Source: Candidatus Peregrinibacteria bacterium (GTDB lineage Bacteria; Patescibacteriota; Gracilibacteria; UBA1369; LOWO2-01-FULL-3). From it: a stretch of 46,968 nucleotides of DNA. Below are positions 1 to 20,557 of this stretch, piece by piece. Each line of letters begins with the position of its first letter. Position 1 is the stretch's first letter. The notes beneath the pieces were generated by a model. The model saw only the letters and a list, made by a program, of their open reading frames with translations. It was not told the origin of the DNA and made no database searches. The translations under genes were made by a program, and so were the position numbers. Where the stretch lies: the NCBI GenBank assembly GCA_016186245.1, contig JACPLZ010000011.1, positions 1-46,968 of the forward strand, read 5' to 3'.

Positions 1-104
1 TGTCATCCAACCGTGTCATCCAACCGTGTCATCCAACCGTGTCATCCAACCGTGTCATCCAACCGTGTCATCCAACCGTGTCATCCAACCGTGTCATCCA
101 ACCA
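1..104. repeat. 13-bp tandem repeat TGTCATCCAACCG, 8 copies, running off the left window edge
   Basis: Units start at 1, 14, 27, 40, 53, 66, 79 and 92. Seven are identical and the last ends in A instead of G. The core TGTCATCC is the reverse complement of the GGATGACA core of the array at 27916-28248. Confidence 0.95.
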
Positions 105-131
105 TGTCATCCCGAACTTGTTTCGGGATCT
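105..131. repeat. Hairpin module TGTC-ATCCCGAA-CTTGT-TTCGGGAT-CTC, same family as the modules at 28012 and 28178
   Basis: Perfect 8-bp stem (109-116 pairs with 122-129) with the 5-nt loop CTTGT. It sits directly 3' of the minus-strand stop codon at 133-135. Flanks TGTC and CTCT match the 28012 and 28178 copies. Confidence 0.8.
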
Positions 132-132
132 C

Positions 133-423
133 TCATCCCAAATGTTTCCAAAAGCACTCTTGGCAGTAAATAACAAAAGGACTCTCCGCCCTGTATGTGC
201 TGATTATTTCTTTCCGGCATTTATCGCAGGTCCTTTTAAAAAGTTTCCTTTCGTTCCTCAAGCTTAATCTCCTCTGTCTGCGACAATCGGGGCAAAGCTC
301 GGGATTTGGCAGCCCTTTTTTCTTATAAAATGCTTTCTCGGCCTGAATAATTAAAAATTCTTTTTCACATCCTTTGCACGTTACTTTTTCACTTTCGATC
401 GTTGGATTTGCAGTTGTATTCAT
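133..423 (-). CDS. Small zinc-ribbon protein (96 aa, 8 Cys in four CxxC pairs, including CxxC-x17-CxxC)
   Basis: Motifs CKGC...CPDCRRQRR...CDKC-(17 aa)-CQEC. It aligns by eye to both the N- and C-terminal modules of the 18902-20557 protein. It starts 17 nt downstream of the cysteine-rich ORF, in a different frame. Confidence 0.8.
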   Translation of the reverse strand: MNTTANPTIESEKVTCKGCEKEFLIIQAEKAFYKKKGLPNPELCPDCRRQRRLSLRNERKLFKRTCDKCRKEIISTYRAESPFVIYCQECFWKHLG

Positions 424-440
424 GATTTTTGGATTAAAAA

Positions 441-1418
441 TTATTTTATAAATGCAGGCTTTTCCGATAATTCCATCGTTGCATTGCTGTCTTCAAACGG
501 ATATGTAGATGGTAAAAACTGCATGTATTCGCCACTTTTCAACATTTCTTCTTTTATCTGCGCAACTTTTTTGGAATATTCATCTTTGGCATACTGCTCG
601 TTAAAAATTCTGTACTCCGCATGATTCAACGAAAAACATCCAAAACAGTCATGCGAATTATAGACCAGCTCGCAATGATCCAGATCATGATTGTCAAAAC
701 ATGTTACGCAAAAATTACAGTTTGTCAGATTCATTTCCGCCATGACTTCATAGTTAAGTTCAGAGTTATAATAGCTGTTGCTCATATCCATACAATCTTT
801 AAGGCTTACAGCGTTATTGCAATACATACAGTCCTCCAATTCCTTCACGTCAAAACAGCGTAAGGCATTTCTTGAATTATAAACATAATCTCCGGTGAAA
901 TTTTCATTATTCAACTGGTGCACATAAAGGTGAGGCACTTTCTTTTTTACATCTTCGAGCATTTCCTTCATTTCCTCGGTAGAAAGCGTGTTTTTAAGCT
1001 GTTTCACTTTCTCGAAATATTCTTCTTTTGAATATTGCTTATTACCGATCATGTACTGCTTGCGTCTCAAACCTGTGCAGCCGAAACAATTTTTGCATCC
1101 TGCGCAATCGAAACAGTAATCACAATCTGTGCAGTTAACGCAATCCTGTGAGTGATTAACATTATAGCAGTCAATACAGTCCACGCAGTCATAGCAGAGC
1201 CGGCATTTTTGGCAGTAATCGCAATCGGTGCAATCCTCCGAATCATAAAGCCAAAAGCCATAATAACAGTCCTGATCAAACTCACTCCCGCACAAAAGAT
1301 GACAATTTTTCAGATTTCCGCAGTAGCTGACATACGGACTGTTTTCGCAATTAACCGCCACCAGTGCCATCTTTGGCGCCGCCAGTCTAACTTCCTCCAT
1401 TTTTTTGAGATAAGACAT
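441..1418 (-). CDS. Cysteine-rich protein (31 Cys), core paralogue of the 18902-20557 protein
   Basis: Two runs of 8 Cys at strict 3-residue spacing: CTDCDYCQKCRLCYDCVDCIDC and CVNCTDCDYCFDCAGCKNCFGC (nt ~1077-1232). Each Cys block is followed by an N-x-QY-x-K-[DE]-EY helix motif. The ORF track starts at 1457, which overlaps ybeY by 28 nt. The ATG at 1418 (MSYLKK) avoids the overlap and matches where similarity to the paralogue begins. Confidence 0.8.
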   Translation of the reverse strand: MSYLKKMEEVRLAAPKMALVAVNCENSPYVSYCGNLKNCHLLCGSEFDQDCYYGFWLYDSEDCTDCDYCQKCRLCYDCVDCIDCYNVNHSQDCVNCTDCDYCFDCAGCKNCFGCTGLRRKQYMIGNKQYSKEEYFEKVKQLKNTLSTEEMKEMLEDVKKKVPHLYVHQLNNENFTGDYVYNSRNALRCFDVKELEDCMYCNNAVSLKDCMDMSNSYYNSELNYEVMAEMNLTNCNFCVTCFDNHDLDHCELVYNSHDCFGCFSLNHAEYRIFNEQYAKDEYSKKVAQIKEEMLKSGEYMQFLPSTYPFEDSNATMELSEKPAFIK

Positions 1419-1429
1419 AAAAAATCTTT

Positions 1430-1885
1430 TTAGTTTTCCAGCACCTTCTTTGCCCATCCCTCCATCTCCGTCTCCTGCCTATCATTCTCATGGTCAAATC
1501 CAAAACAGTGCAGTAACGCATGCACAAACAAAACTTCCATTTCCTTACTTACCGTATGGCCTTTTTCTTTTGCCTGCTTTTTAGCAGTATCTATCGAAAT
1601 AAAAATATCACCCGCAATCACATCGCCTTTCTTTTTTTTGTATTCGGTTATTTCCAGATATGCAAACGATATCACGTCCGTGGGACTGTCTTTTTTTCTG
1701 TATTCGCGGTTCATTTCATGCATCGCTTTGTCATTTATAATTACCAGGTCTATCAGCCCGTTTCGCCCATACAGCCTGCCATCGACAAGTTTTTTAAGAA
1801 CTTTATAAAACTTTTTGATCCTCTTTTCAAAAAGAGTTTTATCAACTTTTATTTTTGTCTCGTTTGTAAAATCAAGTTTCAGCAT
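1430..1885 (-). CDS. ybeY: Endoribonuclease YbeY (rRNA maturation factor)
   Basis: 151 aa with the zinc motif HALLHCFGFDH (HxxxHxxGxxH) near the C-terminus. Size is typical for the family. Confidence 0.9.
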   Translation of the reverse strand: MLKLDFTNETKIKVDKTLFEKRIKKFYKVLKKLVDGRLYGRNGLIDLVIINDKAMHEMNREYRKKDSPTDVISFAYLEITEYKKKKGDVIAGDIFISIDTAKKQAKEKGHTVSKEMEVLFVHALLHCFGFDHENDRQETEMEGWAKKVLEN

Positions 1886-1907: not shown

Positions 1908-2885
1908 TTATTTTTGCCAAAGACTTTCATAAATTTCCCATTCCTCTGCGTCAATTTCCCAATAAGGATATATTGCGACACCGGTAAAATTATCCTCATT
2001 GCTTCTGAAATTATTCAGTCCTGAAGTTATTCCTTTCAACCCGTTTTCGATATTTTCCACTTTTGGATTAAAACTTTCCTTTTCCTCGTCATATGAGGGA
2101 ATTCCAACAAGTAATTCTTTTCCGGCCAATAAATTTGACAGCCAAATAGTCTGCTCCCTCACAAGCAAACAATACAGCCATCCACTATTTATCCCTGTGT
2201 CATAAGCCATAACTACAATTTGATCGGCGTATTTTGCGACATTCCGATAATTCACTTCCGAATTAAAATTTTCAAATTCGCGAAAATTCTTCAATACCAA
2301 TATCAATGATTGAGGAATAAATTCCGCCAGCGCCACGGAAATTTTTTTCTCATCCGGCAGCGCCACTCGTGTTTCCTTGAGCAATTCAATAAAATCCAGA
2401 TCGCCATCCCATACCGGCTCAATGTCAAAATGCACGCCGTCAAATCCAATCAGTCCTGAAAAAATCAAAGCCTGCTTGGCGATATTTTTTCTAACTTCTT
2501 CATCGGCCAGATTTATTTTACTTCGCAATTGCCCCAGCCAGGCCTGATAGCGGATATTCTTATCGAATTTTCTGGCCTTATCAATGAAGTTGAAAGCAAA
2601 ATTATAAGTGTCCGGATCAATATTTCCATCTTCCATCAGCGGTCCGGCATGCACAAAAACAAGATCGATTTCATGTCTGGTTAAATTCTGAATCAACTCC
2701 TTGATTTCCTGATTGGATTTTTTTTCACCAAGCCATTCATGCCCTATCCAGGCCGCATTGTGCCCTTTATTGTAGAATGAACCGGGCTCGTTTGCCGACA
2801 AGCCTATGCCAAAATACCAGATCAAAAAAACAACCATGGCCAGAAAAAGTGTCAAAACAAACTTAAACCACGATCGTTTTTTCAT
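1908..2885 (-). CDS. Membrane-anchored TIM-barrel glycosyl-hydrolase-like protein (GH18-like)
   Basis: N-terminal TM segment (FKFVLTLFLAMVVFLIWYF). The motif FDGVHFDIEP resembles the GH18 DGxDxDxE catalytic signature. It overlaps the upstream gene by 4 nt. The functional call is tentative. Confidence 0.6.
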   Translation of the reverse strand: MKKRSWFKFVLTLFLAMVVFLIWYFGIGLSANEPGSFYNKGHNAAWIGHEWLGEKKSNQEIKELIQNLTRHEIDLVFVHAGPLMEDGNIDPDTYNFAFNFIDKARKFDKNIRYQAWLGQLRSKINLADEEVRKNIAKQALIFSGLIGFDGVHFDIEPVWDGDLDFIELLKETRVALPDEKKISVALAEFIPQSLILVLKNFREFENFNSEVNYRNVAKYADQIVVMAYDTGINSGWLYCLLVREQTIWLSNLLAGKELLVGIPSYDEEKESFNPKVENIENGLKGITSGLNNFRSNEDNFTGVAIYPYWEIDAEEWEIYESLWQK

Positions 2886-3415
2886 ATTTTATTTAAAGCG
2901 TCATACATAATAATCCCATAACATACCGAAACATTCAAAGAATTTGCCCTGCCAAGCATCGGTAACTCCACGGCCATGTCTGCCATGGCCATTACTTCAT
3001 CGGATACCCCATTAACCTCATGGCCAAACACAAAACATACAGGATACCCATACGCAGCTTTTGAATATTCAACGGAGTTATTGGCCAATTCCACGACCGC
3101 GATTTTTACACCCTCTTTTTTAAGCTTTTTTAAAACTTCTACGGCGCTTTCATTATATTCCCACGGAACCAACTCCTCTGCGCCAAGGGCTGTTTTGGAA
3201 ATTTCCCTGCGTGGCGGACAGCCTGTAATACCGCAAAGATACAGTTTTTTCAGCAATACCGCATCGGACGTTCTGAAAATCGACCCCACATTATATAAAC
3301 TTCTCACATTATCAAGCAGGGCAAAAATCGGATTTCTTTTTTTCTTCCTTACTTTTGCCGCGCTTGGCTTTTTTTTGAGAATTTCTTTATGACTCCGTTT
3401 CTTCATCCCTGGCAT
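2882..3415 (-). CDS. SpoU/TrmH-family RNA 2'-O-methyltransferase
   Basis: Motifs NVGSIFRTSDA, FVFGHEVNGVS and LGRANSLNVSVCYGIIMY match the three SpoU motifs. A basic N-terminal extension is present. An alternative ATG lies at 3406. Confidence 0.85.
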   Translation of the reverse strand: MPGMKKRSHKEILKKKPSAAKVRKKKRNPIFALLDNVRSLYNVGSIFRTSDAVLLKKLYLCGITGCPPRREISKTALGAEELVPWEYNESAVEVLKKLKKEGVKIAVVELANNSVEYSKAAYGYPVCFVFGHEVNGVSDEVMAMADMAVELPMLGRANSLNVSVCYGIIMYDALNKI

Positions 3416-18366: not shown

Positions 18367-18909
18367 ATGACCGAGTGTTTTCGAATTTACGATTCCAATG
18401 GAAAACCGCAATCTACGTTAAAACCGCGTAATCAGGTACATGCGGATGGCGACTGGCATCGTGCCGTGGAAACATGGATTCTTAATTCAAAAAATGAATT
18501 GCTGATCCAAAAACGCGCCTCCGGTAAAGATTCCTTTCCCGACAAATGGGACGCCTCCTGCGCCGGACACATTGATGGGGATGAGGAAAGCATAAATACC
18601 GCCATCCGCGAGCTCAAAGAAGAACTTGGCCTCGAGATTAACGCAAGCGAGTTGCAATATCTTTTTGAAACCCGTGAAACAAATGTCACCAATAACGGGA
18701 GATTCATTGATAACGAAATCAAAGACATCTATTTGCTGGAACAAGACATTGATATAAATGATCTGAATCTTCAGGCTGAAGAAGTATCCACGGTACGATT
18801 TATCCATTTTCAAGACCTGGAAAAAATGATACAAGAAAACAGCGGTGATTTTGTCCCGCATAAAAATACTTACGCCGGATTATTTGCGTTTATCCGCCAA
18901 CATGCATAA
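18367..18909 (+). CDS. NUDIX hydrolase
   Basis: Nudix box GHIDGDEESINTAIRELKEELGL (Gx5Ex7REUxEExGU). Length 180 aa. Confidence 0.85.
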   Translation: MTECFRIYDSNGKPQSTLKPRNQVHADGDWHRAVETWILNSKNELLIQKRASGKDSFPDKWDASCAGHIDGDEESINTAIRELKEELGLEINASELQYLFETRETNVTNNGRFIDNEIKDIYLLEQDIDINDLNLQAEEVSTVRFIHFQDLEKMIQENSGDFVPHKNTYAGLFAFIRQHA

Positions 18910-20557
18910 AAACTGCCGGAACTGTCTGCAAAAATTCTCCATCTCCCAAAAGGATTTGGATTTCTATAAAAAACTCAATATCACCGGGCCAACTTTTTGC
19001 CCTGATTGCCGCCAACAAAGGCGTCTTATGTGGCGAAATGAACGCACGCTCTATAGGCGCAAATGCGATGGTACCGGCAAGGAAATTATTTCCGTATATT
19101 CTGCCGACAAGCCTTTTCCTGTATATGAAAATGAATACTGGTATTCCGATAAATGGGACGCTCTCGACCACGGACGCGATTTCGATTTTAGCAGGCCGTT
19201 CTTTGAGCAATTTTCCGAATTGATGAATGTGGTGCCTCAATTAGCCCGTTCTGCGGTGCAAAACCTAAATTGTGATTTCACCAATCAGGTTGGCTGGTGT
19301 AAGAACTGCTACCTCATTTTTGAAGCTGATTTCAATGAAAATTGTTACTATTCAAATAACATTTATGAATCACGTTTTACGATGGACAGCCTTATGGTCG
19401 TAAATTGCGAACTTTGCCATGAATGCGTTGATTGTTACGACTGCTACAATCTTAAATTTTCCCAGAATTGTAAAAATTGCTCCGATTCCTGGTTCCTAAA
19501 AAGCTGTATTGGCTGCCATAATTGCTATGGCTGTATAAATCTGCGCAACAAAGAATATTATTTTCTGAATGAAAAATATTCCAAGGATGAATATGAAAAA
19601 AAGATCGCGGCCTTAAATTTGAGCACCACAGAACAACTGGAAAAAGCCCGCCTGAATTTTTTGGAGTACTGCAAAAAATTTCCCCACAAATACATGGAAG
19701 GCAATCAAAACGAAGATTGCACCGGAAATTACATGTCCAATAATCAGCGTTGTTATGACTGTTTCGACATCAACAATTGTCAGGATTGCAGATATATTTT
19801 CAATTCCCGATATATGAAAGACTGCTGCGATGTTACTGTTTTTGGCTCCCGCGAGGGAGCCGAACTTTGCTATGAAGTGCATGAAACCGGCGCTGCCACC
19901 CGAAATATCATCGGCAGCGATCAGATATGGAGCGACTGCTACGATATTTTTTATTCCAAACTTTGTCTATTTAACAGTCATCATCTTTTTGGATGCGCGG
20001 GACTGAAAAAACAGAGTTACTGCATCTTCAACAAAAAATATTCACCGGAGAAATATGAAGAATTAAAAAACAAGATAGTAGATCATATGAAAAAAACCGG
20101 CGAATGGGGAGAATTTTTTCCGGCTACAATATGTCCTTACGGCTACAACGAAACTGTGGCAAATGACTGGTTTCCTCTGACAAAAAAAGAAGCCAAAGAC
20201 AAAGGTTACAAATGGAAAGACGCCGATCCTAGAGAATACAAACCGCAGACATATAAAATTCCGGTAAAAATAGAGGAAGTTTCCGATGCAATTGTTGATG
20301 AAATTTTGGCCTGCGGAGAGTGTGGAAAAAATTATAAAGTAATTATGGAGGAACTAAAGCTATATCGCCGACACAAACTGCCCATCCCTCAAAAATGTCC
20401 TGATTGCCGCCATAAAACCCGCTTTAACTTAAGAAATAAGCGCAATCTTTGTCAAAGAAATTGCAGGAAATGCAACGCCGAAATTATTACCACTTTCACT
20501 CCAGACCGCCAGGAGCCGGTGTATTGTGAAAAGTGCTATTTACAGACGGTCAATTAA
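18902..20557 (+). CDS. Cysteine-rich protein flanked by zinc-ribbon modules (fused paralogue of 441-1418 plus 133-423)
   Basis: N-terminal module: CRNC...CPDCRQQRR. Core: CELCHECVDCYDC...NCKNC...CIGCHNCYGC, plus two N-x-KYS-x-[DE]-[EK]Y helices. C-terminal module: CGEC...CPDCRHKTR...CRKC-(17 aa)-CEKC. The ORF-track start at 18845 is GTG. The ATG at 18902 (MHKNCRNC) overlaps the Nudix stop by 8 nt. Confidence 0.85.
   Translation: MHKNCRNCLQKFSISQKDLDFYKKLNITGPTFCPDCRQQRRLMWRNERTLYRRKCDGTGKEIISVYSADKPFPVYENEYWYSDKWDALDHGRDFDFSRPFFEQFSELMNVVPQLARSAVQNLNCDFTNQVGWCKNCYLIFEADFNENCYYSNNIYESRFTMDSLMVVNCELCHECVDCYDCYNLKFSQNCKNCSDSWFLKSCIGCHNCYGCINLRNKEYYFLNEKYSKDEYEKKIAALNLSTTEQLEKARLNFLEYCKKFPHKYMEGNQNEDCTGNYMSNNQRCYDCFDINNCQDCRYIFNSRYMKDCCDVTVFGSREGAELCYEVHETGAATRNIIGSDQIWSDCYDIFYSKLCLFNSHHLFGCAGLKKQSYCIFNKKYSPEKYEELKNKIVDHMKKTGEWGEFFPATICPYGYNETVANDWFPLTKKEAKDKGYKWKDADPREYKPQTYKIPVKIEEVSDAIVDEILACGECGKNYKVIMEELKLYRRHKLPIPQKCPDCRHKTRFNLRNKRNLCQRNCRKCNAEIITTFTPDRQEPVYCEKCYLQTVN

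Follow-up and report, generated by a model that had tools for sequence, protein, structure and literature searches.

The gene pair and its conservation

Two small genes lie side by side near the start of a 46,968-nucleotide contig of Candidatus Peregrinibacteria bacterium (NCBI GenBank assembly GCA_016186245.1, contig JACPLZ010000011.1), the whole of which was analysed and is referred to here as the window. One encodes an acidic, cysteine-rich protein (the core) and the other a basic double zinc-finger protein (the ribbon); homologues of both are joined in single-chain paralogues of Peregrinibacteria/Gracilibacteria of about 550 amino acids (aa), one of which, of 551 aa, is encoded in the same window. 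Here, we focus on this split arrangement and on what it says about the family. The reading we favour, and hold to be rather probable, is that the pair belongs, as an ancient two-cistron form, to an undescribed family of zinc-finger/solenoid proteins of the cytoplasm, its two products being complexed non-covalently and working with an ATPase. An earlier note on this DNA, made from the sequence alone, had described separate open reading frames (ORFs) in different frames, 17 nucleotides (nt) apart and each with its own ATG; these coordinates are correct, and both ORFs are on the minus strand, in the order ybeY, core, ribbon (table 1).

Membership of the core in the family of the 551-aa protein, also claimed in the note, is borne out by 35% identity over 313 aa (E=9e-57). 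The window core begins at position 1 of the core profile, ends after the profile and has no covalent finger modules. A word-indexed search returned 516 core relatives, of which the best 120 are nearly all 305-335 aa long and 38-77% identical; proteins of about 320 aa with the core alone thus number in the hundreds, at 40-77% identity. From species-representative genomes 78 loci were fetched, and all frames were scored with core and free-ribbon profiles. A free ribbon ORF lies directly downstream of the core in every member of the window clade (17/17), scoring 156-169 bits on the free-ribbon profile, on which the ribbon modules inside fused proteins reach just 20-98 bits. The core-ribbon spacers of this clade range from -4 to 74 nt, with 294 nt at locus L003. 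Because spacer length, phase and stop codon vary between members and each ribbon has its own ATG, both an assembly frameshift, which the note had named as a possible origin of the split, and conserved recoding are excluded. Programmed readthrough or frameshifting joining the two ORFs was rejected for the same differences between orthologues.

In a maximum-likelihood tree of 155 core domains, one branch (Shimodaira-Hasegawa-like approximate likelihood ratio test, SH-aLRT, 96) separates 43 ribbon-less from 112 ribbon-bearing cores, and the window core falls within a 17-row clade (support 99) with an adjacent ribbon in every member. Judged from this tree, the split form is an old separate clade and not a broken copy of a fused gene. 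Identities to L001 are 75% for the core, 69% for the ribbon, 71% for SpoU, 64% for the GH18-like protein and 48% for YbeY, by which measure core and ribbon are conserved at least as well as their housekeeping neighbours. Surveyed across genomes, fused and split forms occupy separate clades, and the neighbours in orthologous loci are ybeY/SpoU, TrmB and ATPase genes. We are confident that the split pair is real and conserved.

Free ribbons also occur in other arrangements. In a second one, the free ribbon is encoded upstream of a different clade of ribbon-less cores (L042; G004, G005, G012, G010:C5), and in a third architecture a core with a covalent C-terminal (C) module is followed by an extra free ribbon (G003:C8:13680-15191, G008:C5:14208-15717). 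The long spacer of L003 (L003:4970-5263) grew by insertion of GCCCGGGC-type hairpin repeats; at this locus the ribbon ORF was overlooked by the gene caller, which placed an ORF on the reverse strand. The spacers of L025, L027, L028 and L029 share a conserved extended -10-like TGATATAAT; where the ATPase gene described below follows, the ribbon (and the ATPase) may, on the strength of this conserved element, have a promoter of its own.

Gene order and flanking features

The full syntenic order is SpoU methylase, GH18-like gene, ybeY, core, ribbon, a reverse-strand 124-aa ORF and a methyltransferase, and the locus is complete; the gene order is identical in L001, L022 and L100. The window contig (C3) ends in a tandem array with the 13-nt unit TGTCATCCAACCG. 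The reverse complement of this array opens contig C12 of the same assembly (G000:C12:1-60), which carries the 124-aa ORF and the methyltransferase, the genes found downstream of the ribbon in syntenic relatives, so the array represents an assembly break between C3 and C12.

The core start is taken to be the ATG at 1418, since the orthologous frames are closed a few codons upstream: in L001, L022, L024 and L026 a stop codon precedes the conserved start by 2-5 codons, which speaks against a longer frame from 1457. Between ybeY, core and ribbon there is no conspicuous sigma-70-like promoter or terminator. The junction between ybeY and core is a clean 11 nt in the window and in L022; in L001, L021 and L100 a divergent TrmB gene, sometimes with an ORF of about 105 aa, is found between the two. 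Because orthologous loci have TrmB where the window has a bare junction, the dedicated regulator has been lost at the window locus.

Table 1. Features of the core-ribbon locus and of the fused paralogue in the window.
Feature	Position	Strand	Remarks
13-nt tandem array, 8.6 copies	1..112	none	just 3' of ribbon gene
Free-standing double zinc-finger (ribbon) gene, 96 aa, isoelectric point (pI) 9.3	133..423	-	PF13451
Finger 2, residues 66-90, CxxC-x17-CxxC, zf_Tbcl_2/TIGR04272 type	154..228	-	
Finger 1, residues 16-47, CxxC-x24-CPDC, zf_Tbcl type	283..378	-	followed by invariant Arg-rich helix R48...R64
Core-ribbon spacer, 17 nt, A/T-rich	424..440	-	core stop TAA 441-443, ribbon ATG 421-423; frames differ
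Ribbon-less core gene, 325 aa, pI 4.75, 31 Cys	441..1418	-	
Core repeat unit 2, residues 161-310	489..938	-	Cys ladder more degenerate, 10 Cys
Core repeat unit 1, residues 14-160	939..1379	-	holds both eight-Cys i+3 runs
ybeY	1430..1885	-	PF02130 match; 11 nt upstream of core start
GH18-like gene	1908-2885		member of conserved upstream synteny block
SpoU methylase	2882-3415		with ybeY and GH18-like gene, conserved upstream synteny block
Fused paralogue: N-module (finger 1 only) - core - C-module	18902..20557	+	same window

The free ribbon protein

The ribbon contains the four CxxC pairs that the note had counted (C16/19, C44/47, C66/69 and C87/90), and the exact CxxC-x17-CxxC spacing ascribed to it applies to finger 2 only, finger 1 being CxxC-x24-CxxC. 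Residues 13-52 match PF13451 (zf_Tbcl) above the Pfam gathering threshold (38.5 bits, cut-off 24, E=1.1e-9), and orthologous ribbons carry the same match in precomputed annotation; a literature search for zf_Tbcl/PF13451 returned no papers. Among 63 free ribbons, the finger 1 ligands C16, C19, C44 and C47 are kept in 62-63, the spacing of finger 2 (C66-x2-C69-x17-C87-x2-C90) is invariant in 63/63, and all eight cysteines are kept in 62/63. Against zf_Tbcl_2 (PF23477) the window ribbon scores 11.1 bits, below the cut-off of 27 (E=0.33), and it gives no match to TIGR04272. The C end of the fused paralogue is likewise below both cut-offs (22.9 bits against 27 for PF23477, 17.6 against 36 for TIGR04272), and some ribbon orthologues have a precomputed PF23477 match. 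By these profile scores, finger 2 is a relative, not a curated member, of zf_Tbcl_2/TIGR04272.

The AlphaFold2 (AF2) model of the ribbon, built with 63 homologues, has a predicted local distance difference test (pLDDT) score of 86.6 and consists of two beta-beta-alpha (hairpin and helix) fingers. Foldseek and a PDB profile search with the ribbon gave nothing significant, the non-significant matches being tandem C2H2, PHD, YacG, Fur/PerR zinc sites and LIM/CRP. The last of these is a marginal likeness of finger 2 to the second LIM finger of CRP1/CRP2 (E=0.007), with similar spacing; unlike LIM proteins, the ribbon lacks a contiguous double-finger architecture, its fingers 1 and 2 being 18 residues apart. 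With zf_Tbcl, zf_Tbcl_2 and TIGR04272 it shares a finger 1 that passes PF13451, a finger 2 of exact x17 spacing and a predicted hairpin and helix, but it differs from zf_Tbcl-type fingers in joining two different fingers within 96 aa and in being tied genetically to a solenoid core gene. Stand-alone relatives form 62 clusters (72-139 aa, 53-82% identity), many of them on contigs with core-only proteins. Small CxxC-x17-CxxC proteins of Methanosarcina mazei, which resemble the ribbon in being small stand-alone Cys4 proteins, bind zinc as measured by inductively coupled plasma mass spectrometry (PMC12704099), and by analogy with them zinc binding by the ribbon fingers is supported at the family level.

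The note had further held that core and ribbon together reproduce the core and C-terminal module of the 551-aa protein. The core part of this claim stands. The ribbon does occupy, relative to the core, the position of the C-terminal module, and it is 50% identical to the N-terminal (N) module and 38% to the C-terminal one (BLAST). Profiles for both modules were built from 85 full-length fused representatives: true N regions reach median scores of 148 bits (N profile) and 62 bits (C profile), true C regions 64 bits (N) and 151 bits (C), and free ribbons 107.5 bits (N) and 106 bits (C), the window ribbon itself scoring 109.4 and 106.0. On these scores the free ribbon is equidistant from the N- and C-module types and does not correspond specifically to the C-terminal module; an N-terminal-type ribbon, suggested by an RNER signature and the higher identity, was rejected on the same equality.

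The pattern of finger loss accounts for this result. Of 85 fused N modules, 65 retain finger 1 and 26 finger 2, and of 85 fused C modules, 25 retain finger 1 and 72 finger 2, so that N and C modules mostly retain one finger each; the ribbon scores equally on both profiles because it retains both. Since the two modules degenerate in a complementary manner, the typical fused protein has one working finger per type, at opposite ends. This suggests that what is conserved is the need for one finger of each type per double solenoid. Anatomically, the chief novelty is that the split system supplies from one small protein the finger complement of the fused protein. Fused and split forms are alike in their homologous core, internal duplication and finger types. 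Fused forms are linked to TrmB and ATPase genes, and for the split form this linkage is seen at orthologous loci, neither gene being adjacent to the pair in the window. The two forms differ in that the split core has no covalent fingers and one free protein carries both intact; the split form also represents an old clade of its own, with higher conservation and with i+3 runs of eight cysteines, against a median of five.

The core protein

The two runs of eight cysteines at exact i+3 spacing described in the note are present at residues 63-84 (nt 1167-1232) and 93-114 (nt 1077-1142), among 31 cysteines in all. The core is also internally duplicated, as the note had proposed, its halves being homologous over 139 columns (hhalign probability 99.95%, E=1.9e-37). 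Each unit of about 150 aa comprises a Cys-ladder block ending CFGC...L-R-x-x-Y-x-I-x-N-x-x-Y-[SA]-K-[DE]-E-Y and then a helix; the motifs NKQYSKEEY (126-134) and NEQYAKDEY (273-281) each follow one Cys block and lie in predicted helices. The protein is acidic overall, with a pI of about 4.1 in the Cys blocks, and its charge is complementary to that of the ribbon. Neither protein has a hydrophobic or signal-like segment, in agreement with the lack of a signal peptide noted earlier.

No characterised family was recognised for the core in the note, and profile searches lead to the same outcome: the ribbon belongs to PF13451, and the core gives chance-level matches only in Pfam, NCBIfam and PDB sequences and no confident match with Foldseek. 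Its AF2 model (pLDDT 71.5 overall, 80-88 across the Cys block of unit 1) is a stack of 4-residue strands and 2-residue turns with a period of 6. A Foldseek search of the PDB with this model found nothing significant, with a template modelling (TM) score of about 0.1; the best entries, none of them significant, are all beta-helices or solenoids, namely QnrB1, the pectate-lyase fold and tailspikes. With moderate confidence, the core is predicted to be beta-solenoid-like.

Two known kinds of thin solenoid invite comparison. Like the pentapeptide-repeat proteins Qnr and MfpA, which are acidic beta-solenoid DNA mimics, the core is cytoplasmic, acidic and narrow and solenoid-like. It differs from them in having a period of 3/6/12 with Cys where theirs is 5 with Leu/Phe and in having no known link to gyrase; the Pfam Pentapeptide profile does not match the core, and the comparison with QnrB1, the top Foldseek entry, is non-significant (E=0.007, TM 0.10). 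The Tenebrio-type antifreeze beta-helix, built of 12-residue coils, shares with the predicted core a very thin coil and regularly spaced inward-facing cysteines, and is a secreted, disulfide-bonded protein with a Thr-x-Thr ice face. The core differs in lacking a signal peptide, in having twice the Cys density and in having its cysteines swapped for Ser, Leu or Val in homologues.

A linked ATPase and a TrmB-type regulator

In L003, L025, L026, L027, L029 and G002 the next gene after the ribbon, in the same orientation, encodes an ATPase of about 750 aa. The protein matches the Pfam families T4SS-DNA_transf, TrwB_AAD_bind, TraG-D_C and DUF87/HerA, with a Walker A motif at residue 345. No transmembrane segment or membrane anchor was found in it; an N-domain of about 330 aa takes the place of the anchor, and it is labelled DUF8128 in precomputed annotation only, the match not being recovered by our own Pfam scan. 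A literature search for DUF8128/PF26449 returned no papers. The ATPase thus resembles the coupling proteins VirD4, TraG and TrwB in its T4SS-DNA_transf, TrwB_AAD_bind and TraG-D_C matches and differs from them in the missing N-terminal membrane anchor and in that its partners would be solenoid proteins. A 2025 survey of Patescibacteria counted 5,713 homologues of type IV coupling proteins (T4CPs), most of them distant from virB4, and proposed that they may have been exapted (PMC12102498).

The ATPase orthologue is single-copy. Among 101 sampled genomes of the class, 36 have both the family and the ATPase, 8 the family only (source genome included), none the ATPase only and 57 neither, a table to be read as a pattern and not as a statistical test, for related genomes are non-independent and significance is overstated. 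In many ATPase-positive genomes a family gene is followed by the ATPase gene within 0.5-3 kb. The core is preceded by a divergently transcribed TrmB gene in L001, L003, L021, L024, L025, L029, L030, L033 and L100, and L099 has a TrmB gene beside a ribbon-less core.

Copies and distribution of the family

The source genome (0.92 Mb, 87% complete) holds nine members, one split, seven fused and one broken, which together take up about 1.5% of it. In the broken member (G000:C65:6691-7715) the N module and the first core half share one frame (a 299-aa open frame), the core end and the C module lie in another, and core unit 2 is largely absent; a pseudogene or an assembly error is the probable explanation. 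A core-only profile matches 3969 representatives, and among the best 150 fused forms predominate. The family is present in 44/101 sampled genomes of the class, and relatives hold from 0 to at least 22 copies.

A 5.1-Mb record named 'Bdellovibrionota bacterium isolate STL-BDEC1' (L089/G120), too large to be of the size usual in the Candidate Phyla Radiation, carries 22 or more fused copies at dispersed sites and a single orthologue of the linked ATPase, at 49% identity. In the tree, one of its copies clusters with a sequence from Peregrinibacteria. Should the label be correct, the genome is an independent instance of the association between family and ATPase. Family or ATPase genes with many in-frame TGA codons were seen in L086 (uncultured bacterium bin-4377) and in the ATPase matches of G061 and G107, one ATPase match having 28; as in-frame TGAs fit a Gracilibacteria-type code, the system exists in TGA-sense lineages too. 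The 'cysteine-rich proteins' of the Peribacter paper were considered as members of the same family and rejected, being large exported proteins.

Proposed mechanism

Proteins of this family would have treble-clef zinc-finger modules joined to a core that is acidic, internally duplicated and beta-solenoid-like, with a lining of cysteines. The core of the window lineage has no finger module, and a well-conserved protein of 88-96 aa, whose gene comes next, brings one intact copy of each finger type. Each finger would bind one zinc ion via four cysteines. The basic finger protein and the acidic core would assemble non-covalently into the functional unit that the paralogues of about 550 aa form as a single chain. 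This unit would work, as adaptor or client, with the single-copy soluble VirD4/TraG/HerA-type P-loop ATPase and would often be under the control of the divergently transcribed TrmB-type regulator, and the Arg-rich helix of the finger protein would most likely contact nucleic acid or the ATPase.

These steps do not all carry the same weight. Adjacency and complementary charge make a non-covalent complex of ribbon and core probable. The phyletic and positional linkage leaves the case for joint action with the ATPase evenly balanced, and we are doubtful that it is nucleic acid, as the note had suggested, that the Arg-rich helix would contact.

Several observations weigh against the proposal. The complex itself is deduced from gene adjacency and charge, and 21 of the 43 ribbon-less cores have no free ribbon in the fetched flank, so that a core can exist without an adjacent finger gene. 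The co-occurrence with the ATPase is subject to the non-independence of related genomes described above. Closer to hand, no ATPase orthologue is present in the assembled 87% of the source genome, where the best paralogue is 35% identical, and the TrmB gene is missing at the locus in the window as it is in L022; either the pair of the source genome works without ATPase and TrmB, or these partners lie in the missing 13%. The core model, finally, is of medium confidence and has no matching PDB structure, and the near-invariant C75, C78, C111, C114, C237 and C261 could still form metal sites.

Alternative explanations

A different role for the same linkage is that family members, this pair included, are cargo that the VirD4-like ATPase hands over to a type IV-like export apparatus and that acts on or in a host or prey. 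The family is tightly linked, both phyletically and by gene position, to an ATPase homologous to T4CPs, and its termini are basic, as are those of many substrates of type IV secretion systems (T4SSs); tiny genomes carry many paralogues (up to 22 or more), and among the lineages with the family are ones living on other bacteria (the Candidate Phyla Radiation and the Bdellovibrionota-labelled metagenome-assembled genome). Orphan T4CPs have also been noted as unexplained in Patescibacteria (PMC12102498). Set against this, the ATPase has no membrane anchor, most T4CP homologues of Patescibacteria are not near virB4 (PMC12102498), zinc-stabilised folded modules are in general awkward to export, the split pair sits in a housekeeping operon, and the paralogues are old and well conserved, not fast-evolving, as judged from branch lengths and orthologue pairs. 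We regard export as unlikely.

The cysteines of the core raise the second alternative, that its CxxC ladder binds many zinc ions or Fe-S clusters for storage, electron transfer or redox sensing. At 9.5% Cys with regular i+3 spacing, and with two facing CxxC pairs every 12 residues, the core looks the part, and ribbon-less cores retain slightly more cysteines (median 30-32, in i+3 runs of 7-8) than fused ones (median 27, in runs of 5). In an alignment of 75 core-only proteins, however, only 7 of the 31 Cys columns are at least 90% conserved (C51, C75, C78, C111, C114, C237 and C261), and the other 24 have Ser, Thr, Leu, Ile or Val in 10-60% of sequences. Because most positions tolerate Ser, Leu or Val, the core cysteines look like the packing of a solenoid interior and not like a chain of metal sites; the model places them alternately in the short strands and turns of the solenoid. 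The ferredoxin motif CxxCxxCxxxCP is absent from the core sequence, and no Fer4 or other Fe-S or metal-cluster family in Pfam or NCBIfam matches the core at E<=1. The multi-metal scaffold suggested in the note is weakened by these results: it is plausible for the ribbon, with its two Cys4 sites, and for the core we think it quite improbable. In our preferred mechanism most core cysteines would line the coil's narrow interior and not serve as metal ligands, and one candidate zinc site per half is possible, formed by C75/C78 with C111/C114 and by C234/C237 with C258/C261.

The family could also be an anti-phage or conflict system, with solenoid paralogues as sensors or decoys alongside a HerA/FtsK-type ATPase. 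The distribution is multi-copy and patchy, the TrmB-like regulator resembles the winged helix-turn-helix domains of CasR/Csa3, and the ATPase has weak PADLOC matches (mad8, E=2e-12; HerA, E=0.004), but these reflect its generic P-loop domain, and the core, the ribbon and the fused paralogue match no PADLOC family at E<=0.01. The pair is highly conserved and syntenic with ybeY/SpoU across genera, unlike defence islands, and a role in defence seems very unlikely.

Least credible, to the point that we give it hardly any weight, is that the ORFs are really one fused or decaying core-ribbon gene, cut by a sequencing or assembly frameshift or a recent break: they are indeed close together and jointly resemble the core and one end module of the fused paralogue, and their frames are in phase in L001, L020 and L023, with a single TAA between them in L001 and L020 and further in-frame stops in the spacer of L023, but the two-gene form recurs throughout the clade in independent assemblies, the ribbon-less cores are an old separate clade and both products are strongly conserved.

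Implications for the family and for Patescibacteria

The split form, the complementarity of the fingers and the Bdellovibrionota-labelled genome with its at least 22 copies are new; the family core has no Pfam model, and no paper on the family was found in the literature. The natural split means that the covalent linkage between fingers and core is dispensable and suggests that one finger per type is the conserved requirement. It also provides a small, highly conserved two-protein system that is experimentally easier than the 550-aa paralogues and lends itself to co-expression, pull-down, metal analysis and crystals.

For the Patescibacteria, the strict one-way co-occurrence offers a concrete partner for the orphan T4CP homologues left unexplained in the 2025 survey (PMC12102498). 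We put forward, speculatively, that the pair may represent an undescribed cytoplasmic machine in a minimal form that nature has dissected. Family members would then be adaptors or clients of the orphan soluble VirD4/HerA-type ATPase, which is widespread in Patescibacteria; the ribbon would link the solenoid to the motor or to nucleic acid, and the machine would be shared with at least one bacterium of large genome, the one labelled Bdellovibrionota. If true, this would tie the machine to a lifestyle on other bacteria.

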